Source: a phage. Taken from it: DNA of 64,000 nucleotides. The notes beneath the pieces are model-generated. The model had not been told where the DNA came from. It ran no database searches and saw only the letters and a program-made list of their open reading frames with translations. This document shows positions 8,181 through 28,610 of this stretch, piece by piece (the stretch's first letter is position 1; every line of letters starts with the position of its first letter). A program made the translations under genes and the position numbers. The stretch is from sequence record PZ534511.1; one strand, 5' to 3'.

Positions 8181-10300
8181 AAGTTGTAAAACGGGACGGT
8201 AGAGAAGAGGTCTATAACGGAATTAAGGTGATCAAGGCGGCAGAGTCCGCCTTACTTGAGTCTGGACATACTGAAGAAGAAGCTTACCGGATCGCCTGCG
8301 CGGTTAATGAAGTTGTTGCTAACAATCTACCAACCGACCAGTGCACGATCTCTGTAAAAAATATCCATATCCTTGTTGAAGACGCTCTTATGGATATGGG
8401 TTTAAAATGTGCAGCCAGAGAATACATCCAGTATAGGCAGACAAGAGATAATAACAGAGAGGCAGGTGGAAAACTGCTTGCAGATATTAGTGGCTTCTTG
8501 GATCGCACTTGTGATGAATTTACAAAAGAAAACGCAAATAAGCCTACCAATCATGTACACACTCATCGTGACCTGCTTGCAGGCATCCTTAGCAAACACC
8601 TTGCATCAACACAGATCCTGCCAGACCGTGTCTCAGAAGAGCACAATAAAGGCTTCATCCATGTGCATGATCTTGACTATTTGATCAGTCCGTTAACAAA
8701 CTGTTGTTTGGTAAATTATCCAGATATGTTGGAAAACGGATTCAACATTGGTAACGCCCATGTCAGTAAGCCGAAGTCAATAGGGGTTGCAACAACAATC
8801 CTTAGCCAAATCTCTAGTGCAGTAGCTAGTGCTCAATATGGAGGTCAGACTATGAGCCATATTGATCATTATCTGGCACAGTATGCTGAAGCGACCTATG
8901 AGAAGAACCTTAAATTTTGCCAGGAACATTGGTTGCCAGATGCTGAGACTGTTGCAATGCAAATGACAGATAAAGACGTATTTGACAGCATGCAGACTTT
9001 ACTCTATCAAATCAATACGTTAACTTCTGTCAACGGGCAAACTCCATTCATCACACTAAGTTTAGGACTGGATACCTCGGTCTTTGGTAGAATGATTACC
9101 AAAAATTACTTGAAAGTCCACAAAATGGGTCTTGGTGAAGAACGGATCACACCTGTGTTCCCTAAAGTGCTGTTCTTCCTAGAAGAGGGTGTCAACATGA
9201 ACCCTGGAGATCCTAACTATGATTTGAAAAGATTGGCCCTGGAATGCTCTGCAGAGCGGATTTATCCTGACTTTGTTTCTGTTCCACTAAATCGTAAAGT
9301 GACAGGCTCGACAGATGGTAAAGTAACAAGCATGGGTTGCCGGAGTTTTCTTAGCAAATACAATGACTTGGAAACAGGCGAGGAGAAATACCTTGGCAGA
9401 TTTAACTTAGGCGTTGTTAGCCTTAACCTGCCAATGATTGCGGCAAAAGCTAAAACGGAAGGTGTTGATTTCTTTGCAGTTCTTGACGAATACCTGGATC
9501 TTGCATACGAGGCTCACCTTGTAAGGGTTAACCGTCTAAAAGGAACAAAGGCAGGGCAGAACCCTATCATGTGGTGTGAAGGCGCTCTTGCTCGCCTGGA
9601 TCCTGAAGAGAGTATTGATAAACTCTTCTATGAAGGGTACGCTTCCATCAGTATTGGGTATATTGGTGTGTATGAAACCTGTCAGATTTTGGGCAGGGAG
9701 GGTGACAAGGCTTTAGCTCTTGGAATACTTCAGCACATGAGAGATGCTTGTGAGCGATACAAGAAGGAAAGTAGACTAGCGTTTAGCTTGTACGGCACCC
9801 CTTCTGAGAGTCTATGCTATAAAGCTGCAACCTGTCTGGATCGTGAATATCCTGAAGTGTTGAAGCACGAGCATGAATATCTCACCAACAGTTTCCATCA
9901 GCCAGTATGGATCAATAGCTCTCCTTTTGATAAGTGGAAGTATGAGGAAGGTTTTGCTATGATCTCCTCTGGTGGAAACATCGGATATGTAGAGACACCA
10001 AATCTGAAAAACAACTTAGATGCTTTAGAAGCTCTTGTTGACTTCGGGTATAAACACATTATGTATTTTGGTATTAACCAACCTGTGGATAAATGTCTTA
10101 AGTGTGGTTTCTCTGGGGAGTTCAGTGCAACAGCTAAAGGCTTTGTATGCCCAGAGTGTGGAAACCATGAAGAGGGAACGATCAGTGTAATTCGACGTGT
10201 GTCCGGATACCTTTCCAGCCCTAACTCCCGTCCTTACAATAAAGGTAAGCAAGCGGAAGTTATCGAGCGAGTTAAGCACTATGGAAGTTGTAGTTGCTGA
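8177..10300 (+). CDS. nrdD: anaerobic ribonucleoside-triphosphate reductase (class III)
   Basis: 707 aa; C-terminal Zn ribbon CLKCG...CPECG and glycyl-radical motif RRVSGYL. Confidence 0.9.
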   Translation: MKVVKRDGREEVYNGIKVIKAAESALLESGHTEEEAYRIACAVNEVVANNLPTDQCTISVKNIHILVEDALMDMGLKCAAREYIQYRQTRDNNREAGGKLLADISGFLDRTCDEFTKENANKPTNHVHTHRDLLAGILSKHLASTQILPDRVSEEHNKGFIHVHDLDYLISPLTNCCLVNYPDMLENGFNIGNAHVSKPKSIGVATTILSQISSAVASAQYGGQTMSHIDHYLAQYAEATYEKNLKFCQEHWLPDAETVAMQMTDKDVFDSMQTLLYQINTLTSVNGQTPFITLSLGLDTSVFGRMITKNYLKVHKMGLGEERITPVFPKVLFFLEEGVNMNPGDPNYDLKRLALECSAERIYPDFVSVPLNRKVTGSTDGKVTSMGCRSFLSKYNDLETGEEKYLGRFNLGVVSLNLPMIAAKAKTEGVDFFAVLDEYLDLAYEAHLVRVNRLKGTKAGQNPIMWCEGALARLDPEESIDKLFYEGYASISIGYIGVYETCQILGREGDKALALGILQHMRDACERYKKESRLAFSLYGTPSESLCYKAATCLDREYPEVLKHEHEYLTNSFHQPVWINSSPFDKWKYEEGFAMISSGGNIGYVETPNLKNNLDALEALVDFGYKHIMYFGINQPVDKCLKCGFSGEFSATAKGFVCPECGNHEEGTISVIRRVSGYLSSPNSRPYNKGKQAEVIERVKHYGSCSC

Positions 10301-16328: not shown

Positions 16329-16562
16329 ATGAAAGTTAAATTTCTTACAGATTTAGGATACCCTTCCTTGGTTGACTGCATCGGTAAAATTGTGGAAGCA
16401 AAACGGCTATCTGCAAACGATAATGTTGTCATGGTTAAGGGAAAAGATTTATTAGCTGCAGGTGCAGAGTCTGGCAGGATCTCTCCTGACTATACGTATT
16501 ACCTGTCTTTAAGCAATCTACCAGAACGAGGCGGCAAAGGCCTTGAAGTTGTGGAGGAGTGA
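16329..16562 (+). CDS. small protein, member of MKVK...VEIVEE paralog family
   Basis: MKVKFL...G.DLLAAGA...GLEVVEE resembles ORFs at 19993-24375. Confidence 0.5.
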   Translation: MKVKFLTDLGYPSLVDCIGKIVEAKRLSANDNVVMVKGKDLLAAGAESGRISPDYTYYLSLSNLPERGGKGLEVVEE

Positions 16563-16567
16563 CAGGT

Positions 16568-17092
16568 ATGCTTCTGATTAACTGGGAAGACCTCTATGGG
16601 GACAAAGACCCTGTTGCGTTTGTTGGTCGTAGGTGGAGGTACACTGAAGAACAACTGGCTGCAAAAAATTTAACTGCAAAACGCAGAAAGATTATCCAAT
16701 GCAAGTACAAATACGCACAGTTTGCTGCAAAAGTGTCTCCACAAATCGAGAGCTTTGTACTTAAATTGTATGACGAGTATCTCAAATTCAAATTGGATTT
16801 TGTGCAGGTATACCGTGCACAGGTACGTCCAGATACCAGCATTTGTAGATGGAAGGTTGTTTGTGACGGTAAAGATTTGCCACTCAGCTTGACAATTGAG
16901 CAGCGTTGGGGGTATCATGAGTGTGGTCTGTATGAGACTTGGGATGTCATTGTAGATCCTGCTAAGTACCTGAACACAGAGGAGCTGGAATATATCAATA
17001 AGGTTATTCTAGATATGTTTTTCAACTACACCCGTGAAAACTCCGAGAAAGAACGAGATAATTTTCTTGACACCATCAGCAACCATCTGTAG
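16568..17092 (+). CDS. hypothetical protein
   Basis: ORF; ATG with GGAGGAG RBS. Confidence 0.45.
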   Translation: MLLINWEDLYGDKDPVAFVGRRWRYTEEQLAAKNLTAKRRKIIQCKYKYAQFAAKVSPQIESFVLKLYDEYLKFKLDFVQVYRAQVRPDTSICRWKVVCDGKDLPLSLTIEQRWGYHECGLYETWDVIVDPAKYLNTEELEYINKVILDMFFNYTRENSEKERDNFLDTISNHL

Positions 17093-17122
17093 TATATAAT
17101 TTAACCTACAAAGGGAGGGCTA

Positions 17123-17359
17123 ATGAGTATAAATGTTGTGCTAATAGGTTACCTGGTAATAGCCGCTATAACAGCGGTATTCTTGACAGGTGTATGCATC
17201 GTGTCCAGACGAAGGGTGAAGTTTGATGATTTTATCACCATCATCACTGCTGCACCTTTTTGGCCTGTTGTTATCTTCATCGTGATAATGTGCCTGGTTG
17301 ATTACTACAAGAATATCCGTAAGGAGAAAAAGGAGGGTAGGGATGGAGACCGCACCTAA
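17123..17359 (+). CDS. small membrane protein (2 predicted TM)
   Basis: two hydrophobic stretches. Confidence 0.45.
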   Translation: MSINVVLIGYLVIAAITAVFLTGVCIVSRRRVKFDDFITIITAAPFWPVVIFIVIMCLVDYYKNIRKEKKEGRDGDRT

Positions 17360-17578
17360 AACTGTTTATACTGTTCTTAAAGAGATTGCGTTCTACGCAG
17401 ATCTTAGCCAGGCACCTTTATGGGAAAAGAGCATGTATTTAAAATGGTGCGTTAATTTAGGGAGACCTTCCAGTGTTTCAAGCCATGTTTATTGAGATGC
17501 TATCTGGGGTATTGTTACTGGTAGCCATCTTAGGTGGTGCAGTTCTGATGTATAACTATCTTGAAAAAGGAGACAGCA

Positions 17579-17764
17579 ATGGCAAAAAATAAATCTTTAG
17601 AGCAGGCTGAAAACCTTCTCCACGAGCTAGTAAAGGAGTGGAAAGTTGAATACTCAGATTTTAATGCACGAGAGGGTGAAGATTATTGGCCTACGGAGCG
17701 CTCAGAGGGCGAATGGTATCAAGATTTTATAGAGTGGTTATATCAGACGTGCGATGAGGGGTGA
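17579..17764 (+). CDS. hypothetical protein
   Basis: ATG with GGAG RBS inside track ORF 17561-17764. Confidence 0.35.
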   Translation: MAKNKSLEQAENLLHELVKEWKVEYSDFNAREGEDYWPTERSEGEWYQDFIEWLYQTCDEG

Positions 17765-18231
17765 CGATGTTTGTTAAATATGTAAAAACGTGCCTCAACA
17801 GTCTTGGCAGAGAGCATTGGTACACTTTGCTTGAAAAAGGGGAAATTTTAACAAAATCTGGAAAGATAACTTTGATACCTCTTGATAGTAAAGGTAAAGA
17901 CCCGTCACGACTTGTTATAGATGATTACGTTACAGGTGTGACGTTCGAGGTCTCTGTGGAGAGGTTAATACGCAGAGCTGGCGGCCCTTATGACCGAAGA
18001 GAGTATGTTTTCGATTCCGTTACAGAGATGGGGGAGCATCCGTCTTTAATGTTCAGGATGGTAATCAGAGATATGAGGTCATCTATAGATAGGATCGTAA
18101 AGGACATTAAGGAACCTTTTAGAGTAAAAGTTAAGAAGTTTTTCGATTCTAAGATTAACATACTTGCCGTTGCACTAGGTGTAGTTCAACTTCTGTTAAT
18201 TTTGCACTATTTTGAACTACTATTTAAGTAG
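17761..18231 (+). CDS. hypothetical protein with C-terminal TM helix
   Basis: ORF; hydrophobic C-terminus. Confidence 0.45.
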   Translation: MTMFVKYVKTCLNSLGREHWYTLLEKGEILTKSGKITLIPLDSKGKDPSRLVIDDYVTGVTFEVSVERLIRRAGGPYDRREYVFDSVTEMGEHPSLMFRMVIRDMRSSIDRIVKDIKEPFRVKVKKFFDSKINILAVALGVVQLLLILHYFELLFK

Positions 18232-18293
18232 TAGTTGAGATATGGCACAAAGGATGTGCCATAGTGAAATAAACTAAGAAAGAGGTAGAGAGA

Positions 18294-18641
18294 ATGCCAA
18301 AGATTAAAACGTTATTACTGTGGGTAGCTGTTTTAGCTTTTATAGGGTACTGGACTTGGGAAACTGAATTAAAAGATATCGGATATACCAGTCTTGAGAG
18401 CAAGGCGTGCATTGGCATAACCGATGCGTTCAGGCAAAATGCTATGGATCACGAATGTGTTGATGCAGATATAGATGAGAAACTGTCTAAGGACAAAGAT
18501 TTTTACCATGGGCATGCTTTACTTGATAGTGGTGACACTGTAGAGTTCTGGTCGTGGTTTCGTGAAGATGGAACAATAAAAACAGCAGTAAAGATCTCTA
18601 ACAAAGAGTTAATGCTGTTGCAGCAAAAGGAGGCTCAATGA
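18294..18641 (+). CDS. hypothetical protein with N-terminal TM/signal segment
   Basis: MPKIKTLLLWVAVLAFIGYW hydrophobic N-terminus. Confidence 0.45.
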   Translation: MPKIKTLLLWVAVLAFIGYWTWETELKDIGYTSLESKACIGITDAFRQNAMDHECVDADIDEKLSKDKDFYHGHALLDSGDTVEFWSWFREDGTIKTAVKISNKELMLLQQKEAQ

Positions 18642-18925
18642 TCTGGATATCCTATGCTGATGGCACCATGCTGTATACTGCAGGTACCAGATATGAAGTT
18701 CAGGAGAACGATAAAAAATTTATCGTAAAAACATTTGACAAGGACGACAACCTTTTGCTAGAATTGACTTACAAAGTTGGAGAGGTATCCAATATCCAGT
18801 TGGATTGTGGTCATAAAGATAATCCACTCAAAAAACCTGGAGTAGGTAAGGCTTCAGAAGAACGTCTGTCTCGTATTGCAGAAAGCGTTTCTCCCCAAAA
18901 ATCTAAGAAGAGGACTAGAAAATGA
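18638..18925 (+). CDS. hypothetical protein
   Basis: ORF overlapping neighbours by 4 nt. Confidence 0.45.
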   Translation: MIWISYADGTMLYTAGTRYEVQENDKKFIVKTFDKDDNLLLELTYKVGEVSNIQLDCGHKDNPLKKPGVGKASEERLSRIAESVSPQKSKKRTRK

Positions 18926-19116
18926 AAAACTTACGTTTTAACACTTATTACTACAACACATTGAATGATTTGTATTATATTGTTCGAAGTAAAAGTCCTG
19001 AAACAGTCCTATTCTGCCGCGAACCTTTCAAAGGGGAGGAAGTAGAGTCTGAGATGAATGTTAGCCAGATCACCTCTTTGTTGCTCTCAGGCGCAATGGA
19101 AGAAGCAATATTCTAA
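18922..19116 (+). CDS. hypothetical protein
   Basis: ORF. Confidence 0.4.
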   Translation: MKNLRFNTYYYNTLNDLYYIVRSKSPETVLFCREPFKGEEVESEMNVSQITSLLLSGAMEEAIF

Positions 19117-19134
19117 ACCAGGCGGGAGGGTTTT

Positions 19135-19320
19135 ATGAAGCACTATTGCCTGTCTGGTAGAATGGGTGCAGATTGTGATTGGGTTTTCTTAAAACTTGTC
19201 AGCATTCGAGAGTTCATCCCAGAGGAAGAGCAAGAAAGCGAGCTGATGTCATGGATCAACCATTACGGTAACACTTTTCGGCATGTTAAGGTAGAAGAGT
19301 TGCCAAGCGAGGCTGATTGA
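19135..19320 (+). CDS. hypothetical protein
   Basis: ORF with GGGAGGG RBS. Confidence 0.4.
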   Translation: MKHYCLSGRMGADCDWVFLKLVSIREFIPEEEQESELMSWINHYGNTFRHVKVEELPSEAD

Positions 19321-19322
19321 CT

Positions 19323-19412
19323 ATGATTGCATCAATATTAACGTTTATGGGTGGCGTGGCATTCGGATTCATTGTTTGCCTGTTTATAGTGATTATGTCT
19401 ATGCGAGGCTGA
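19323..19412 (+). CDS. 29-aa hydrophobic micro-protein (below ORF-track cut-off)
   Basis: single TM-like stretch filling gap between genes. Confidence 0.3.
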   Translation: MIASILTFMGGVAFGFIVCLFIVIMSMRG

Positions 19413-19415
19413 ATT

Positions 19416-19712
19416 ATGAAACTTTTTGAGTGGTTTAAAAAGTTTAAATATAAAGCTGTAGCCATCGTGCCGTGGTCCATTCAGTGGGTTGATGAATGTG
19501 GTCTACCAATACCTGGTGACAAAGATACTGGGTACTGGATTATGATGGAGAACGGGTTTGGAAAGAGAAAGTATACGTGCACAAACTCTACTCGATCTGC
19601 ACTTAATAGAGTGCCTGGTTACAAACTTATGGTTGTGTGGAAAATGTCAGGCGTTCCTCCAGCCAATGCTCAATTTCTTACTGACAATCCAACCACGGTG
19701 GAGGGAGATTGA
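19416..19712 (+). CDS. hypothetical protein
   Basis: ORF. Confidence 0.45.
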   Translation: MKLFEWFKKFKYKAVAIVPWSIQWVDECGLPIPGDKDTGYWIMMENGFGKRKYTCTNSTRSALNRVPGYKLMVVWKMSGVPPANAQFLTDNPTTVEGD

Positions 19713-19714
19713 TA

Positions 19715-19996
19715 ATGAAAAAGGTTAACAGTGGTGAAGTTGAGTTTAAACTTGTCGGGAAAGGCACTTACTGGGAAGTTCGTCAAAAGGTATATTTGTT
19801 CGGTCTTATTCCCTATTGGTCTAAATTCTACTGGGGAGCTAACGAGTTGGGAAGATACGCCACCAAATCAATGGCACTTATTGGTATAGCAGAGTACATT
19901 GCAGCCAGAGATAGGGTTGGAGACACTTATTACTATACTGCGGACGATATTCGTAACAGTGTTTACGTCCCACAACCACCTGATGGAGACCGTTGA
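19715..19996 (+). CDS. hypothetical protein
   Basis: ATG with GGAG RBS. Confidence 0.45.
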   Translation: MKKVNSGEVEFKLVGKGTYWEVRQKVYLFGLIPYWSKFYWGANELGRYATKSMALIGIAEYIAARDRVGDTYYYTADDIRNSVYVPQPPDGDR

Positions 19997-20220
19997 TGAA
20001 AGTTAAAGTTTTAGATTCAAGCTTCTATATTGGTCAAGAGCCTTTGGTTGGAAAAGTGTTTACCGCTGTTCCTAATAAAGATTACCCTGACCTTTTAAAA
20101 ATAAAAGGGTCAGCTCTTATTGCCGCTGGCGCATCTCAGGAATGCTTTGACAGTCAGTGGACCTACAACTTTGCCCTAGGAGAGGATGTGGAGATAGTGG
20201 AGGACGATCATGAAGGTTAA
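19993..20220 (+). CDS. small protein, MKVK...VEIVE paralog family
   Basis: MKVKVLDSSFYIGQ...GSALIAAGA...DVEIVED. Confidence 0.5.
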   Translation: MMKVKVLDSSFYIGQEPLVGKVFTAVPNKDYPDLLKIKGSALIAAGASQECFDSQWTYNFALGEDVEIVEDDHEG

Positions 20221-20464
20221 AATTCTTGACTCTAACGTCTACTTGGGACAATCCTTCCTGAAAGGAAAGGTCGTACCTGCGGCATACTTCGAATGGTTGC
20301 CTGACAACGATCCTGTGCGTCAGAAGCATTCCACTGTATCACACTGTGTGGTATTTATTCGCGGGTCAGATCTGATCAAAGCTGGTGTCCCCAAGTATTA
20401 CTTTGAGGAAGAACATTACTATGCCTTCGGTGTAGGAACAGATGTAGAGATTGTAGAGCGGTAG
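20210..20464 (+). CDS. small protein, MKVK...VEIVE paralog family
   Basis: MKVKILDSNVYLGQ...GSDLIKAG...DVEIVER. Confidence 0.5.
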   Translation: MKVKILDSNVYLGQSFLKGKVVPAAYFEWLPDNDPVRQKHSTVSHCVVFIRGSDLIKAGVPKYYFEEEHYYAFGVGTDVEIVER

Positions 20465-20465
20465 T

Positions 20466-20864
20466 ATGAAGAACAAGCTTTTCAAAGTAACAATGAAAAT
20501 TCGCGGAGCTTGGAGCGTAAAGCAAGGACGTATTCCAGAATTTGAGAAAGACTTCTACGTAGTCTCCACCTCGGAGGAGGCTGCATGCTGGCAGGCTGGC
20601 TATGCCTATGCAAGAACATGGTACGAAGGGTACCAGACTGGTGGCTATGACGGAGAAATTATCAGCAAAGGTGCAGAAGAAATTAATGTGTTGACAAGTG
20701 AAAAAGTTTTTGTTATAGTGCATCCAGATTCCAGAGTGAAGCATTACTGGAATGCCAGAACAAAAACTTGGACACCGTTTGCAGATTCTGCTACACCACT
20801 TTTAAACCAAAAAGCTCTTGACTCTGCCCCGAGCTATGGGGTTGTTGAAGAAAAGCTAAACTGA
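20466..20864 (+). CDS. hypothetical protein (paralog of 22676-23071)
   Basis: shared HP.S...YW......WTP...T.L pattern. Confidence 0.5.
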   Translation: MKNKLFKVTMKIRGAWSVKQGRIPEFEKDFYVVSTSEEAACWQAGYAYARTWYEGYQTGGYDGEIISKGAEEINVLTSEKVFVIVHPDSRVKHYWNARTKTWTPFADSATPLLNQKALDSAPSYGVVEEKLN

Positions 20865-20881
20865 AACAGTGAGGTGCCACT

Positions 20882-21172
20882 ATGATGGATTTAGTTCTGA
20901 ATATTGATAACGCAGGAGAGGTTAAAGACGATGGTGTAACAAGCATGTACCAACCATGCCCTGCCAAGATTGACTCAAAATGGACCTATAAGTTTGACGG
21001 AGAGATCTTTGCAAATGATGAAAAGGTTGTAGATGCTGCAGCCATTTTGAACGCTCTAGGGTACGACCCTGTGAATTCTTTGATCAAGGATCCTGTTGAG
21101 TTTGCAGAGTATGTTCGAAAAATGGCAGATCTTGCTGTAGATATTTTAGATACTATCGACAACAAGCTGTAA
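20882..21172 (+). CDS. hypothetical protein
   Basis: ORF with GAGGTG RBS. Confidence 0.45.
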   Translation: MMDLVLNIDNAGEVKDDGVTSMYQPCPAKIDSKWTYKFDGEIFANDEKVVDAAAILNALGYDPVNSLIKDPVEFAEYVRKMADLAVDILDTIDNKL

Positions 21173-21178
21173 AAACTG

Positions 21179-21207
21179 TTGACACAACGCTTCAGCTATA
21201 GTATTAT
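21179..21207 (+). promoter_or_regulatory. sigma70-like promoter (TTGACA-17-TATTAT) upstream of hpf
   Basis: -35/-10 hexamers. Confidence 0.55.
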
Positions 21208-21259
21208 TGTTTTCAAAGAGAGATGGTTGTTATTCTCCCTTCCTTGAGAGGAGCACGTT

Positions 21260-21577
21260 ATGCAAATTGAGATCACTGGCAACGTAGAAATCACCGAAGG
21301 TATGGTGTCTTTCATTTCCCACAAAATGTCAAAACTGGAGCGTCTACATCCTTCTGTAAATCATGCACGTGTAAGTGTAAAAGTTGAAAATGATCACCAG
21401 GAAGTTATGGCGTTCATTTTTGACACTTCTGGAAAAGAAGTTATTGCCAAAGCTAAAGGCAGTGATGCTTACGAGGCAACTGACCGTATGGTAGATGTTG
21501 CAGCACGTCAGCTGGCTAAATGTGGTGGAAAGAAAGGTAAAGGGAAAGGAAAAGTAAAGATTGACTTTGGAGAATGA
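21260..21577 (+). CDS. hpf: ribosome hibernation promoting factor / RaiA family protein
   Basis: MQIEITGNVEITEG...KLE...VSVKVEN...GSDAYEATDRMVDVAARQLAK closely parallels E. coli HPF (MQLNITGNNVEITEA...DMYAAIDGLIDKLARQLTK), recalled from memory. Confidence 0.8.
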   Translation: MQIEITGNVEITEGMVSFISHKMSKLERLHPSVNHARVSVKVENDHQEVMAFIFDTSGKEVIAKAKGSDAYEATDRMVDVAARQLAKCGGKKGKGKGKVKIDFGE

Positions 21578-21586
21578 GGTGCTACA

Positions 21587-21688
21587 ATGGGCGTGATTAA
21601 GAAATTAGTCCCAAGTGTAGAGATTGCATGCTTTGAAATTATGTTTGCAATCGCAGTTGTAGTTAATGTGTTAGGTTACGGCTATTGA
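21587..21688 (+). CDS. 33-aa hydrophobic micro-protein (below ORF-track cut-off)
   Basis: GAGGTG RBS; single TM-like stretch. Confidence 0.3.
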   Translation: MGVIKKLVPSVEIACFEIMFAIAVVVNVLGYGY

Positions 21689-21714
21689 TATCAAATAATT
21701 GAGGAGACCTCTAA

Positions 21715-21984
21715 ATGAAAATTAAATTATTCAAAACTGAGCTGGCAGACAAAAACTGTGGACTGGTTGAAGGCATGATTGTTGAAGCACAACCAGTGGA
21801 CTACATGAAGGTGGTTCGTGATGCCTTGGGTGAAGGTTTTGATCTGATGGAGCCAGCTCTGCGAGAAGATGTCATCGAGATGGCTAAAAAGCACACACCT
21901 GAAGGTCTGGTGGTGTTTGTTGCACCGGGTAACGGAGAAGAGTTGATTGTAACTCCGGATGTGTATGAGATTGTAGAGGAATAA
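21715..21984 (+). CDS. small protein, MKVK...VEIVE paralog family
   Basis: MKIKLFK...ends VYEIVEE. Confidence 0.5.
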   Translation: MKIKLFKTELADKNCGLVEGMIVEAQPVDYMKVVRDALGEGFDLMEPALREDVIEMAKKHTPEGLVVFVAPGNGEELIVTPDVYEIVEE

Positions 21985-22075
21985 TCCTGCTTGGATTAGC
22001 ATACTTCCTCGATAAGGAAGGTTTGTAATTATTTGTGGGAAAGGAATCCCAATCTCTTACCAGAGGTGATACTAT

Positions 22076-22339
22076 ATGATTGTTTATTTTAAAACTTCAG
22101 GTGGATACCCTGATTCTCAAAGCTTGATCGGAAAAACGTGCACAGCATACTCACCTCTTGATGAGGAGGTAGGCGATATTCTACGGAATATGTATCGGAT
22201 TGATCCTCAAGAAGCTTTTGATCAAAACCTTGTATTTGTCAAGGGCTCAGACATGAAGTCTTTGGGAGCATTCCCTGAAGCAGATGATGATGCCGTTTAT
22301 TCGTTCATGACCCCTTTTGAAGCTATGGTTGTTGGGTGA
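22076..22339 (+). CDS. small protein, probable divergent family member
   Basis: similar size, ...VFVKGSDMKSLGA... core. Confidence 0.45.
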   Translation: MIVYFKTSGGYPDSQSLIGKTCTAYSPLDEEVGDILRNMYRIDPQEAFDQNLVFVKGSDMKSLGAFPEADDDAVYSFMTPFEAMVVG

Positions 22340-22346
22340 TAATATG

Positions 22347-22676
22347 AAAGTACGCTTTATTGGTGAAACAATTCCTGTGCATCTCCGGTCGCCTGAGGAT
22401 TCTGCAGATCTTGCATCTCAAAAGGCGAGAGGTTATGATAAGAAAGTAACCTCAACTGATGTAGTGCTTGAGGCTACTAGTCTACCTGACCCTGCTGCAT
22501 TCTTTAATCATTATGGGTACTATTTCAGCAATCTGATGAATATCGGTGAGCTTGTGTTTATTAGTGGTGGAGAGATTGTTAGCAAGCTTGGCGGCGATCC
22601 GGATGTCTTTCATGAAACCTGTCCTTTTGCATTTGTGGTAGGTTCAGATGTGGAAGTTATTGAGGAGGTGCGGTAA
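22347..22676 (+). CDS. small protein, MKVK...VEIVE paralog family
   Basis: MKVRFIGE...ends DVEVIEEVR. Confidence 0.5.
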   Translation, partial: KVRFIGETIPVHLRSPEDSADLASQKARGYDKKVTSTDVVLEATSLPDPAAFFNHYGYYFSNLMNIGELVFISGGEIVSKLGGDPDVFHETCPFAFVVGSDVEVIEEVR

Positions 22677-23071
22677 TGGTAAGCCTATACCGTGTTGAGT
22701 ATAGCTCAGATACTGTATACAACGTAAGAAGCAAAGATCGCAGCGACAGAGTGCAAGAAATGTATGTTCTTGCCGACAGTCCGTTATCTGCAGCGTTCAA
22801 GGCAGGGGCTCTTGCATCTCGTTGGAAATTTGAAGGCGGATCTTTCTATGAAGAAACCCTTGAAGATTCTGTTGTTATTTCTTCTGTAGAGGTTTCAGAT
22901 GACTACGAAGGGAAAAAGTTCGTAATGCGGCACCCACACAGCAACATTGCGTACTACTGGGATGTTCTGAACAACGAGTGGACCCCAGATCTTCAGAAGG
23001 CTACTGTGCTAACACCGTTTTTGGCAGATAAGTTCCCACCAGAAGGTAATTTATCCGCACTGTTTCAGTAA
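22676..23071 (+). CDS. hypothetical protein (paralog of 20466-20864)
   Basis: shared RHPHS..AYYWD....EWTP...ATVLTPF pattern. Confidence 0.5.
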   Translation: MVSLYRVEYSSDTVYNVRSKDRSDRVQEMYVLADSPLSAAFKAGALASRWKFEGGSFYEETLEDSVVISSVEVSDDYEGKKFVMRHPHSNIAYYWDVLNNEWTPDLQKATVLTPFLADKFPPEGNLSALFQ

Positions 23072-23089
23072 TTTTCTTGCACACAGGTG

Positions 23090-23118
23090 TTGACAACGCC
23101 AACCCTGTGTGAAATAAT
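23090..23118 (+). promoter_or_regulatory. sigma70-like promoter (TTGACA + AATAAT-type -10)
   Basis: consensus -35; A/T-rich -10 at about 17 nt. Confidence 0.45.
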
Positions 23119-23150
23119 ACCTTCATCTTAACAAGACAGGAGACCGATTG

Positions 23151-23408
23151 ATGAAGATTAAATTGAAAAACCTTGAAACGGCAGAGATTCAGGACGGTGT
23201 TGATTTCCGTTCTAAAGATGGTGACATCTTAGAGGTAAATATTCCAACCTACGAGCTGATTAAAGGTTTTGGCAACGTTCCGGAAGAGGATATTACAGAA
23301 ATTCTTATGATGTTGATTCTTGACGGAACTGTGTTTGTAGGTGAAGGTGAGAACGCTATTGCAATCCCAGGCCATTTTTATGAAGTAGTTGACGAAGAGG
23401 TGCTGTAA
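23151..23408 (+). CDS. small protein, MKVK...VEIVE paralog family
   Basis: MKIKLKNL...ends YEVVDEEVL. Confidence 0.5.
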   Translation: MKIKLKNLETAEIQDGVDFRSKDGDILEVNIPTYELIKGFGNVPEEDITEILMMLILDGTVFVGEGENAIAIPGHFYEVVDEEVL

Positions 23409-23759
23409 ATGAAAGTAGAAATTACCGGTTTTGATGTGAATGTGGTTCCGGAAGATATTTTAGCTAAACTTCCAGAAGGTTTTGGTAACGGCGTTGTGGT
23501 GGATGCTGTTCCTCCTACCAAAGACATTCTGCTGCAGTATGGTGTAGCAGAGGAAGATGTCGATAAAGTTCTTACAATGATGGCAATCGATCGTGTTGTC
23601 GTTGTTAAAGGTCTCGATAATTTTGAGAGTGATCCCCTGATTATTCGTGGAGATGACTACAAAATCATCGATAATGAAGGCCAAGAGTTCTATGAACCTT
23701 GTGCAGAAGATATTCTTAACTTATTACTGGAAGCAGGCACCGAAGAGGAGGACGAATAA
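23409..23759 (+). CDS. small acidic protein, family-like
   Basis: MKVEITG... acidic C-terminus. Confidence 0.5.
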   Translation: MKVEITGFDVNVVPEDILAKLPEGFGNGVVVDAVPPTKDILLQYGVAEEDVDKVLTMMAIDRVVVVKGLDNFESDPLIIRGDDYKIIDNEGQEFYEPCAEDILNLLLEAGTEEEDE

Positions 23760-24088
23760 TGAAGATTGACCCGTTACTGAAGGCTCGTGCAGAAAAAGCG
23801 TACACTATTAAGCTGACTAATCTGGTTCCTACTTGTCATCCGGATGTAGGTTGGCCCGAAGGTTTGGTGGAGGGAACTGTAACAGCTGCATACCTTCCTA
23901 ACATCAAATACCTCATGGAGATCTTAGAGATGGATGAGGAAACTGCAGAACAGTTCCAGTTGGATATGAAACAAAGTGGGACTCTGGTTATTCACGGGTG
24001 GTACAATACTAAAGATGCAGAAGACCCTCTGGTAACTTCTAATCTAGCATATGAAATCTTAGGACCTTTGAACCTGGAGAAAGACTAA
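23759..24088 (+). CDS. hypothetical small protein
   Basis: ORF translationally coupled to neighbours. Confidence 0.45.
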   Translation: MKIDPLLKARAEKAYTIKLTNLVPTCHPDVGWPEGLVEGTVTAAYLPNIKYLMEILEMDEETAEQFQLDMKQSGTLVIHGWYNTKDAEDPLVTSNLAYEILGPLNLEKD

Positions 24089-24375
24089 TGAAAGATCTGG
24101 TTAAGATTAAGATTAAAGATACCAATGGAGAACTCAGTCATTTTGGAATTAATGATGGTGACGAGCTGATCGCACACCTGCCTACCAAGGAAGTTGTAAG
24201 CAAAGCAGTTGCCGGAGAAGAAGATGCAATGCAGGCTGCAGGTGTGGATGAAAACTATGTAGCCATGTGCATGTGCCGAGATCAGGTTGTTCTGTATAAA
24301 GCGTATCGACCAAACGGAGCCACGGAGTGGCTTGTATTTCGACCTGAAGGATATGAAATCTTAGAGGCACTATGA
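24088..24375 (+). CDS. hypothetical small protein
   Basis: ORF; ends GYEILEAL. Confidence 0.45.
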   Translation: MKDLVKIKIKDTNGELSHFGINDGDELIAHLPTKEVVSKAVAGEEDAMQAAGVDENYVAMCMCRDQVVLYKAYRPNGATEWLVFRPEGYEILEAL

Positions 24376-25469: not shown

Positions 25470-25478
25470 TGACAAAAA

Positions 25479-25501
25479 GAGGGGCTTGGACCCCTCTTTT
25501 T
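25479..25501 (+). terminator. rho-independent terminator
   Basis: GAGGGGC-uugga-CCCCUC hairpin followed by UUUUU. Confidence 0.7.
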
Positions 25502-25524
25502 ACTATCTATGAAGGAGATTTGAG

Positions 25525-25851: not shown

Positions 25852-26159
25852 GGTGGATTATGTCTACAAAGGCGGCTAAATACTCTTACATGCCATCAAC
25901 CTCTGCAGAGGTAGACTTTAGTTTCGATGTGTTTCCACTGTTTGAGGTGGTTCTGGCATACCCAACAATACTATCTACTCCTGAATCACTTGTGCCTGTT
26001 AAGTTGCAGAACGCTATGCATTCTATGCACTACAACAATAAATGTAGGCACAGATGGTGTCAGGACGAGGAAAAAGATTTGGATAGTTTGAGAGATTTTG
26101 ACAGTCACCTTTTGACACCTTTCAGCTACTCCAACCTTGATAAGCCCTCATGGGTATAG
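25848..26159 (+). CDS. hypothetical protein
   Basis: ORF. Confidence 0.4.
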   Translation: MRWIMSTKAAKYSYMPSTSAEVDFSFDVFPLFEVVLAYPTILSTPESLVPVKLQNAMHSMHYNNKCRHRWCQDEEKDLDSLRDFDSHLLTPFSYSNLDKPSWV

Positions 26160-26183
26160 CAAAATATCAAATTTAAGACACCT

Positions 26184-26210
26184 AGGACGCTCTGTGGCGT
26201 CCTTTTCTTT
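26184..26210 (+). terminator. rho-independent terminator
   Basis: AGGACGC-ucugu-GGCGUCCU hairpin followed by UUUCUUU. Confidence 0.65.
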
Positions 26211-26372
26211 ATCTGGTGCACGATTGCATACCTTGGACAGATAATCTCGTTACAGAGCGTTTAAGAGCTTCCTACAAACAAATCTCTCTTTCGAGCGTAG
26301 CGAGAACGCACGTCCGTTTTGACCCAAATCACCATACGCTCGGATTTTAACCAAACCCTCGCGGCGTTTCTG

Positions 26373-26401
26373 TTGACACATTACCGATCCAGTGATAGTA
26401 T
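26373..26401 (+). promoter_or_regulatory. sigma70-like promoter (TTGACA-17-TAGTAT)
   Basis: -35/-10 hexamers. Confidence 0.5.
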
Positions 26402-26421
26402 CCACACATAGTTTGTAGAAT

Positions 26422-26523
26422 ATGGAGTACACAATGAGAACATTGTCCGAAGTTTTAGTGGTGATCCTGATGATCATTACGTCCATAGCGGCTGTTGCCG
26501 GAATACTCACGGGTGGAACATGA
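26422..26523 (+). CDS. 33-aa hydrophobic micro-protein (below ORF-track cut-off)
   Basis: single TM-like stretch; stop overlaps next ATG. Confidence 0.3.
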   Translation: MEYTMRTLSEVLVVILMIITSIAAVAGILTGGT

Positions 26524-26732
26524 TCAACACACATGCATCTGAAGAGACATCCGAAGGAGTGACCATATGTCCCTTGGATGAGCCAGTTAAAGAGGAAAAC
26601 TTAGATTCTGAGGACTCTTCATCTTCGTCCCAGACAGATCCTGAGGCTGATGACCTGACGTGGGAGGACATCGTAGATATCTGGTTCTCTATTATGCCTG
26701 AGCACGAAGAGTTCAGAGGTGGTAGACTATGA
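26520..26732 (+). CDS. hypothetical acidic protein
   Basis: ORF; Ser/Asp/Glu-rich. Confidence 0.4.
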   Translation: MINTHASEETSEGVTICPLDEPVKEENLDSEDSSSSSQTDPEADDLTWEDIVDIWFSIMPEHEEFRGGRL

Positions 26733-26771
26733 AGCACCGAGCCCACACAGGTTCCTCATGCTAAAGCATGG

Positions 26772-27982
26772 CCTGAAGAGGCAAACGTGTATAATTCTTG
26801 TGCATTGGAACGTATAAAACCCTGTTCACACTCTCATTCCCAGAGGAGATTTTATGAAGATAGAAATATTTGGTGGGGCTGACAACACTCGTGGCCTGAT
26901 TTACCTTGAATTCGATGAATCATACCTGCCAGAGGTGTTAAATATAGACTCTGTTGCTGAGGCTTTGGGAGTAAACCCTAAAGAACTCCACTCTTGTGCT
27001 GAGATCGATGGTTGGGAAGAGACCATGAATATTGATTTCAGTGAAGTAGAGGATGAACCGCTGGACTGACACACAATTAGCTGCCCGGCTAAAGTGCTGG
27101 AAGCACCTATAACACATCTTTCAACTAAATTTCCTACCACCACAATCACTTACCTCCCACACATGACTGTTTGCTTGTTTAGTGAGCAGTCATGCCTTGA
27201 CATTCTTGCCTATCCTGATAAAATTAAGTTCTTCTCTTTTCTTTTACCGAGTAATTCGGGTTTTCTGTTCTCTTCGGTTTGAAGGGGTATGGAGATACAC
27301 CTGAGTGAACAGGGTGAACAACCGAACCATTGGCTATGGCATTAGCATGGCGAAGCGGACGGGTGACGAAAGAGTGGCCGGAGGACACCAGTCACTGCCA
27401 TATGATATATGGGTGATAACCTGAAGAGTCTGAATAAGTGTTTAAGTACCAGTCAGAGGAAAAGGTGAATGGTAGCCGAAGGGGGAGGGGGGTTTCTTGT
27501 ATCTTTAATTTGTATATTATGTATACACTTGTAAACCAATCTCATCTGAATCTGTTTACCACACAAGGCGGATAGAGACAAATATTACCTATTAAACTTG
27601 AATTATTTATAGAAAATACCACAACACCACTTAAGTCTTTGATTTTACACACAAATCTTACAGATATTCAGCCTCCCTATTTAACATACCTGTAACATAT
27701 TCCATACTCTACCTGTCTGATCAATTTACTCCCACCACATCCCCACATTTTCCTTGTCTGTACTACCCCTGCCCCGCCGGGAGTCCCGTCATATCTGGCT
27801 TTCCAGCAAATATCACACCCACAAATATCATTGCCTGAAGAGGGTTTCATCCCATAACACATGCCTTACCTGAAGAGCGCTTCATACACCACGTAAATTT
27901 TTTAATTGACCTCCCCTTCCCCGCCGGAGAGGTTGGCTTTTCCCACACAGACCTGAAGAGTCAGCCAGAAATATCTGAAGAG
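26772..27982. repeat. six dispersed copies of 9-mer CCTGAAGAG (one TCTGAAGAG)
   Basis: copies at 26772, 27420, 27834, 27869, 27952, 27974 on the same strand. Confidence 0.6.
26854..27069 (+). CDS. hypothetical acidic protein
   Basis: ORF with GGAG RBS. Confidence 0.45.
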   Translation: MKIEIFGGADNTRGLIYLEFDESYLPEVLNIDSVAEALGVNPKELHSCAEIDGWEETMNIDFSEVEDEPLD

Positions 27983-28610
27983 GGTCTAGTTCTGCCCTGT
28001 CATGAGCGGTAGCGACTGGAGTGCTGCCAGGCGGACGAAATGGGAATACTTCTCATTCTTATAATAATTCTCAAATATCGAGGCAGTGAGGCAAATTAAT
28101 AGGTGAGGCCGTTCACACAGTGGCACAACATTTGCAACCTATCTTGTGGGGGTGAATGAGAATACCTATCATTGTGAGAATAGTTATCATTACGGGCAAT
28201 TTAACATAATACCCATTATGCGCACCACTGGCGATACATACAGGGATTGATAACATGAGTTACAGTTTACGCATATAACAATCATATTTCTTACTATTTG
28301 TGTGGGATATAGTTAGCAGCCAATAGATTAGATATTGACCTGCAGACTTCCAACCGTCTAGACGTCTAAACGCCCACACAACAAGGATTATACATACATC
28401 GCTGAATGTAAACAGGGCCGCAAAAATGCTACCATACCAGTTTGTAAATTTTTCATGCAGCACTTGACAAAGAGGAGAAAAACTTGTCTGACACACCGGA
28501 CACAATATGGCACAATAACGACTGTTATTATTTCATGTTTCACTGTTCACGTATAGATTGTTCCCGCATAGACTGTTTACACCTTGACAGTTTACACAGA
28601 TATGATAAGC

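Follow-up and report, generated by a model that had tools for sequence, protein, structure and literature searches.

The window analysed here is a stretch of 64,000 nucleotides of phage DNA (record PZ534511.1), in which a long run of small genes on the + strand lies downstream of the nrd genes, PhoH and a ClpP-like protease. Two genes of this run are considered here. Paralog A, at 20466..20864 on the + strand, encodes a protein of 132 aa with a pI of 7.8, and paralog B, at 22676..23071 on the same strand, encodes an acidic protein of 131 aa with a pI of 4.7; both open reading frames are present at exactly the coordinates and lengths given in the original prediction. A is the ortholog of gp137 (ORF142) and B the ortholog of gp144 (ORF149) of phage rV5, both of which are annotated there as ‘hypothetical protein’, and the window proteins are 96–100% identical to the rV5-group orthologs (YP_002003639 for gp137 and YP_002003646 for gp144). 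Both belong to phrog_7379, A as an A-type and B as a B-type member. The window belongs to a Vequintavirus, and from 19900 to 23500 it is 95–96.5% identical at the nucleotide level to >100 deposited Vequintavirus genomes (rV5-like Escherichia coli myoviruses), and A and B are annotated CDS in every annotated relative.

By profile comparison, the small genes of the array form two superfamilies, an MKVK group (the genes at 16329, 19993, 20210, 22076 and 22344) and an MKIK group (21715, 23148, 23409, 23759 and 24088). Immediately upstream of A is an MKVK-family gene at 20210..20464 (+ strand, 84 aa, phrog_5009), the stop codon of which lies 1 nt before the ATG of A, and this gene is in turn preceded by a second one at 19993..20220 (+ strand, 75 aa, phrog_5009). 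Upstream of B, a gene at 22344..22676 (+ strand, 110 aa, beginning MKVR, phrog_13661) ends in a stop codon that overlaps the ATG of B (TAATG), and a strong Shine–Dalgarno sequence, GAGGAGGT, precedes this ATG. The start of the 22344..22676 gene is the ATG annotated in relatives, and its longest open reading frame begins at 22317. It is preceded by an MKVK-like gene at 22076..22339 (+ strand, 87 aa, phrog_13920, with a weak match to phrog_5009). Between the two paralogs lies the gene for an HPF/RaiA-like ribosome hibernation factor (21260..21577, + strand), which is annotated in relatives and is outside phrog_7379. There are no tRNA genes in the window.

Two sigma-70-type promoters on the + strand are found next to these genes. 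The first, at 21179..21207 (TTGACA-17-TATTAT), corresponds to the annotated P144 of rV5 and closes the transcription stretch that includes A, and the second, at 23090..23118 (TTGACA-17-AATAAT, with TG), corresponds to the annotated P150 and lies directly after B. A scan gave 39 sigma-70-like sites where 26.9 ± 5.1 were expected, and several of these have a perfect TTGACA on the + strand in intergenic gaps. The rV5 genome paper reported 33 sigma-70-type promoters and treated genes 82–163 as one transcriptional unit (PMC3606486). Judged from these promoter sequences, it is plausible that the region of A and B is read by host RNAP in early or mid infection.

Both genes are kept under strong purifying selection. 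In comparisons of the window with its most divergent close relative (IMG/VR contig L006, ∼90% nucleotide identity), 34 of the differences in A are synonymous and 7 non-synonymous (dN/dS 0.04–0.05), the corresponding numbers for B being 32.5 and 6.5 (dN/dS ∼0.04).

Relationship of the two proteins

Residues 5–116 of A align with residues 4–119 of B by BLASTP with 27% identity and 46% positives over 119 columns (E 7e-10). The Smith–Waterman score of the pair is 111, compared with 27.9 ± 4.7 and a maximum of 63 for 2000 shuffles of B (z 17.5), so that 0/2000 shuffles matched the score of the pair. Within the window's own proteome, A and B find each other reciprocally by phmmer (E 9e-11 and 3e-10), and the phrog_7379 profile takes in both proteins over their full length, residues 2–132 of A on profile positions 1–131 (E 1e-73) and residues 1–131 of B on the same positions (E 2.1e-66). 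Hence, by pairwise alignment and by profile search alike, the likeness that had been noticed from the sequence is significant and in register.

The original prediction had drawn this likeness from a C-terminal pattern and from a similar N-terminal layout. The C-terminal pattern is common to both proteins and in register, reading VFVIVHPDSRVKHYWNARTKTWTPFADSATPLL in A and KFVMRHPHSNIAYYWDVLNNEWTPDLQKATVLT in B; its spacing as first given is one residue too long, as six residues and not seven separate YW from WTP, and WTP itself follows a T in A and an E in B. The N-terminal halves align as well, with conserved Y31, A40, G45 and R50 (A numbering). In a seven-sequence alignment (A3) of A-type and B-type members from three lineages, the invariant positions are (B numbering) Y30, A39, G44, R49, F82, H86 and P87, together with W95, W102, A109, T110, P121 and G124. 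The two types differ in charge, with A-type members near neutral (pI 7.8 and 7.0) and B-type members acidic (4.7 and 5.1).

A low pairwise identity of 27% is the only point in favour of a chance similarity, or of reading frames that do not code at all. Against this stand the z of 17.5 over shuffled sequences, the full-length match of each protein to the same PHROG, the dN/dS of 0.04 in both genes and their annotation as CDS in all annotated relatives, and we regard this explanation as refuted. A and B are true paralogs of phrog_7379, for which local duplication is the natural origin.

The A3 alignment was also compared with the profile of every gene of the array by hhalign. All genes other than A and B gave a probability of ≤1.3%; thus phrog_7379 is separate from the MKVK family, and no third paralog was found among the array genes. 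The proposal of a second duplicated family interleaved with the MKVK-type small genes is therefore borne out by BLASTP, phmmer, PHROG and hhalign. That both proteins fall in one PHROG means that the pair was already implicit in that resource, and the feature as such is ordinary; what is added here is the dating of the duplication, its block structure, the differential loss of the copies and a natural deletion showing that A is dispensable.

Distribution, probable duplicated block and age of the duplication

A tblastn search with B (E up to 1) of 50,697 phage records found 119 matching records, all Vequintavirus-like, with 234 matching places, and in this search each complete genome carries two copies, B and A. 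Homologs in related phages are thus also multi-copy, with exactly two per genome in ∼119 deposited genomes. B is kept in 119/119 records with at least 95% amino acid identity; A occurs in 117 phage records, at full length in 116, with 96–99% amino acid identity. The matches include 18 ‘Campylobacter phage’ records, which are UNVERIFIED entries classified as Vequintavirus.

Wider searches covered 5.8 billion proteins with a word-indexed method and 1.84 billion cluster representatives with an exhaustive HMMER profile search. These yielded rV5-type proteins, a few of them truncated or fused, and only three divergent full-length members, two of B-type (P0007 and P0015, 38–40% identical to B) and one of A-type (P0008, 38% identical to A). 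Further HMMER matches with E values of 1e-5 to 6e-4 (P0010–P0014) were rejected as spurious, since these are long repetitive proteins with 5–6 matched stretches in low-complexity repeats. The exhaustive HMMER search found no phrog_7379 member outside rV5-like phages. In the region downstream of ClpP of Seunavirus GAP31, hmmsearch --max found no member either (best E 0.17). The seven members have no match in Pfam and match 0 families of PADLOC-DB (both at E up to 10), and a sequence-profile search of the PDB with the family returned no match and no ribosomal protein. On these sequence searches, phrog_7379 is an orphan family restricted to rV5-like phages.

The genes directly upstream of the two paralogs are related to each other. 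The 20210–20464 and 22344–22676 genes are each other's best match across the blocks (hhalign 95%, E 3.7e-8), with 41% BLASTP identity over the C-terminal 39 residues, and each block has a second MKVK-group gene further upstream, 19993 in the A block and 22076 in the B block. Given these related upstream genes, the MKVK genes preceding them, the tight junctions and a lineage that lacks the 22076-22344-B unit as a whole (see below), duplication of a block is the most economical account. This account is well supported, and we are moderately confident that two or three genes, in the order [MKVK, MKVK, phrog_7379], were copied together; as MKVK genes are common in the array, the adjacency could also have arisen by chance.

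The contigs bearing the divergent members are collinear with the window throughout the array. In one set (L002/L003/L004 and L017, from Logan contigs and from one contig of 124 kb in an E. coli assembly; neighbouring proteins 45–87% identical to those of the window) only the B-type gene is present. The order there is the 19993 and 20210 orthologs, gene X, the 20882 ortholog, HPF, the 21715, 22076 and 22344 orthologs and the B-type gene; gene X, an unrelated gene of 96–104 aa, fills the position of A, and no A-type gene occurs within ±10 kb. The HPF ortholog in L002/L017 matches PF02482. In another set (L005/L007–L010, JGI and IMG/VR contigs; neighbouring proteins 28–73% identical to those of the window) only the A-type gene is present. 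It lies at the syntenic A position. Missing from this lineage are HPF and the entire unit 22076-22344-B, on either side of which the 21715 and 23148 orthologs are kept.

Cross-type identity is 26–30% and within-type identity 38–40%. On the simplest view, the duplication is older than the divergence of the lineages compared here and was followed by differential loss; a possible alternative would be that duplication took place after the L005 lineage had split off and that B evolved faster. The duplication is old on both views. The paralogs of one genome are 27% identical and their orthologs 95–100% identical in about 119 genomes. Together with the dN/dS of ∼0.04 and the occurrence of single types in distant lineages, this indicates an ancient duplication and not an ongoing one, and we are highly confident of both the paralogy of A and B and its ancient origin. 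The original prediction had further suggested repeated local duplication in this region, of which we saw no sign for phrog_7379: there is no third copy in the array or per genome.

A natural deletion bears on the need for A. In the BASEL phage Bas59 (EduardKellenberger), the sequence corresponding to window positions 16965–20778 is deleted, so that the N-terminus of the 16559–17092 gene is fused to what remains of A, its final 33 codons. The two MKVK genes of the A block are lost as well, and B is intact. As E. coli K-12 served for both the isolation and the propagation of Bas59, which is without most of A, A is dispensable on this host.

Predicted structure and possible function

AlphaFold2 models were made for both proteins. 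The model of A, from four sequences, reached a pLDDT of 53.7 and was left out of the fold search; that of B, from seven sequences, reached a pLDDT of 76.1 and a pTM of 0.68. In the model of B, the N-terminal domain is predicted to be beta-beta-alpha-beta (hairpin 3–16/21–33, helix 36–53, strands 59–72), and it would be followed by a small three-stranded sheet (81–85, 94–96 and 101–103), which has the highest confidence of the model (83–91) and would bear the invariant F82, H86-P87, W95 and W102. The YYW(D/N)x5W(T)P segment, with these three short strands, was also considered as a WW-like domain; this was dropped, as no WW match was found in Pfam at E up to 10 and the spacing of the segment differs from the WW consensus.

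Foldseek against BFVD gave paralog A of phage V18 as the sole significant match. Next came gp194 of phage 4MG (V5KSY8, 185 aa; Seunavirus, Vequintavirinae), with a probability of 1.0, E 0.015 and TMq 0.55, and after it many phage proteins of 60–80 aa that match the N-terminal domain only. The gene for gp194 lies in an equivalent small-gene array, and hhalign pairs ...YILAENKESVIFRAG... with ...YVLADSPLSAAFKAG... of the two (probability 14%, E 0.002 in a single comparison); the aligned part of gp194 is without the C-terminal HP..YW..WTP motif. Due to the hhalign probability of only 14%, gp194 was not accepted as a relative; it is an orphan found in 4MG alone, so that no profile of it can be built. 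Against the PDB, chains of eL20 ranked first for the B model, with E values of 0.19 or worse and TM scores of 0.38–0.44. The structural matches, which concern a predicted model, are resemblances at the level of the fold and not family membership.

The eL20-like predicted fold, taken with the adjacency and co-occurrence of HPF, would suit a reading of A and B as ribosome or translation factors, in which an eL20/LX-like fold binds rRNA or the ribosome and B in particular, together with the phage HPF/RaiA, reprograms or hibernates host ribosomes. However, at E 0.19 or worse and TM below 0.45 the resemblance stays at fold level, beta-beta-alpha-beta is a widespread fold (with similar scores for PurS, PaaB and Gp2), and none of the seven members matches the Pfam model of eL20/L18a/LX (PF01775) at E up to 10. 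eL20 is a basic protein that binds the rRNA of archaeal and eukaryotic ribosomes; neither the neutral A nor the acidic B (pI 4.7) suits an rRNA binder, and the phage infects a bacterium. eL20 is not known to have a counterpart or a binding site in bacteria, nor is a counterpart of the HP.S..YW..WTP segment known in eL20. Moreover, HPF and B are absent from the L005 lineage through two distinct indels on either side of a retained 21715 ortholog. We rate a role in translation as improbable, and its fullest version, in which phrog_7379 proteins are ribosome-binding factors that, early in infection, join HPF in remodelling or silencing the ribosomes of the host, B and HPF being gained and lost together and A having diverged in specificity, is more improbable still.

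A further reading starts from the predicted likeness of the N-terminal domain to Gp2 and takes A and B as modulators of host RNAP, which would help a phage without an RNAP of its own to pass from one transcription class to another. T7 Gp2 and the Gram-positive epsilon subunit YkzG bind RNAP, and Gp2 binds the beta-prime jaw through an acidic surface. A and B differ from T7 Gp2 in being twice as long and in having an extra conserved C-terminal module, and they have no sequence relation to it. We rate this reading as about equally improbable as a role in translation, or slightly more so.

Another possibility is that A and B are counter-defence inhibitors of E. coli anti-phage systems, with two specificities, and that they are dispensable on the defence-poor K-12. 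The loss of A in Bas59, a K-12 isolate, is consistent with this, as are the loss of A-type and B-type genes in different lineages and the nature of the genes, which are small, genus-restricted, located in the early region and without a known domain. The annotators of rV5 also noted, in the GenBank record, that gp137 is ‘similar’ to gp30 of Listeria phage A118 (NP_463491), now AcrIIA3, which at 125 aa is near gp137 in length. This similarity does not hold: BLASTP gives a local match of 38% over 42 residues (E 0.039 in a single comparison) and hhalign a profile probability of 0.4%, so that AcrIIA3 was rejected as a relative. In addition, near-invariance in >100 phages, with B 99–100% identical, and a dN/dS of 0.04 do not resemble the arms-race pattern that anti-defence genes often show. 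We consider specific counter-defence inhibition unlikely, and still well ahead of a role in translation or at RNAP.

The reading we prefer is a broader one. A short block of one or more MKVK-type genes and a phrog_7379 gene would have been copied within the array, giving rise to A and B, and the copies would then have diverged, A-type members towards near neutral and B-type members towards acidic proteins, before both came under strong constraint. A and B, both small and soluble, may be made from sigma-70 promoters and act as non-enzymatic accessory proteins, binding a macromolecule of the host in the service of take-over or counter-defence. In such a protein, the N-terminal beta-beta-alpha-beta domain could serve as a scaffold and the mini-sheet with the invariant F..HP.S...YW.....W(T/V)(P/S)D...AT could form a conserved interaction surface, and the two paralogs might address different or differently charged partners. 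We put forward the explanation as a whole, from paralogy and block duplication to host-binding accessory proteins, as one that falls a little short of being probable; the non-enzymatic binding of a host partner by A and B, in which both the binding and the target are deduced, is somewhat more tentative. In the literature on Vequintavirus and anti-defence, phrog_7379, phage HPF and the rV5 genome, we found no functional data on these genes.

Meaning for the small-gene array

A and B of the window are the phrog_7379 family itself, which includes gp137 and gp144 of rV5, and show no difference from it. The family is a tightly conserved orphan with no relatives among 1.84 billion representative proteins, and the finding, of modest significance, leaves the current understanding as it was. 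As a case of array growth, the pair shows how small-gene arrays of large lytic phages grow: short blocks duplicate, the duplicates become very different in sequence, and which of them is then lost varies from lineage to lineage. Bas59 provides a natural deletion of A among the genetically tractable BASEL phages, and gp137 and gp144 are reasonable candidates for screens in which early genes of Vequintavirus are examined for a part in counter-defence or in take-over of the host.

Gene content around the paralogs

Between the paralogs A and B (orthologs of rV5 gp137 and gp144), the window encodes a homolog of the ribosome hibernation factor HPF/RaiA (PF02482; 21260-21577, + strand), preceded by its own sigma-70 promoter at 21179-21207. 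This homolog is found in the rV5-like lineage and in the B-only lineages L002 and L017 and is missing from the loci of the A-only lineage (L005, L007-L010); its distribution among lineages equals that of B. Directly 3' of the B-type gene, both B-only lineages carry a PF27050 (Phage_P22_Y8K6) gene (L002 10467-10763; L017 10466-10762), of which the window has no counterpart. The position of A is taken in L002 and L017 by gene X, of 96-104 aa (L002 8068-8358), which has a homolog in L005 at 9367-9642, and the array of small genes in this A-only metagenomic lineage has an insertion of an IS605 OrfB/TnpB (Cas12f-like) gene (L005 13532-14644).

Labels of the related records

L002 is a 124-kb contig (ABPOLI010000013.1) within the E. 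coli genome assembly GCA_034560175.1, and NCBI labels a protein of this contig as E. coli. Over the 20 kb that were read, the contig is collinear with the small-gene array of the window, and it looks like an rV5-like phage genome; no homolog of its lineage was found in the INPHARED phage collection. Eighteen UNVERIFIED 'Campylobacter phage' records in GenBank (MG0656xx, e.g. MG065655.1) are classified as Vequintavirus and show about 95% identity to vequintaviruses of E. coli; the hosts given for these records are probably mistaken. The GenBank note on rV5 gp137 (1009-1407 of L021, the rV5 record) connects this protein to NP_463491 of Listeria phage A118 (gp30, 22812-23189 of L022), which RefSeq now names anti-CRISPR AcrIIA3. 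Homology of gp137 to AcrIIA3 was unsupported by pairwise and profile comparisons.

Deletion and transcription signals in the array

The BASEL phage Bas59 (EduardKellenberger, MZ501061.1; L018) has a natural 3.8-kb deletion corresponding to window 16965-20778, through which ~14 small genes are gone, and at which an in-frame fusion ORF (L018 4135-4602), annotated as 'putative glycosidase', joins the ortholog of 16559-17092 to the last 33 codons of A. An overlap of ~15 nt at the junction suggests microhomology. The coding sequence of A also contains a strong sigma-70-like site (20691-20719, + strand; TTGACA-17-TATAGT with TG, 11/12), which could be an internal promoter of the 20882-21172 gene or a match by chance. 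Downstream, there is a hairpin resembling a bidirectional terminator at 25472-25503, and near 27-28 kb GC skew changes sign and gene orientation turns from + to -; the region at about 26000-28000 is probably the border of rV5 transcription units (genes 163/164).

Superfamilies of the MKVK/MKIK genes

By profile-profile comparison, the small genes starting with MKVK/MKIK in window 16329-24375 (+ strand) fall into two remote superfamilies, the first comprising the genes starting at 16329, 19993, 20210, 22076 and 22344, and the second those at 21715, 23148, 23409, 23759 and 24088. Ten or more of the array's genes therefore go back to two ancestors.
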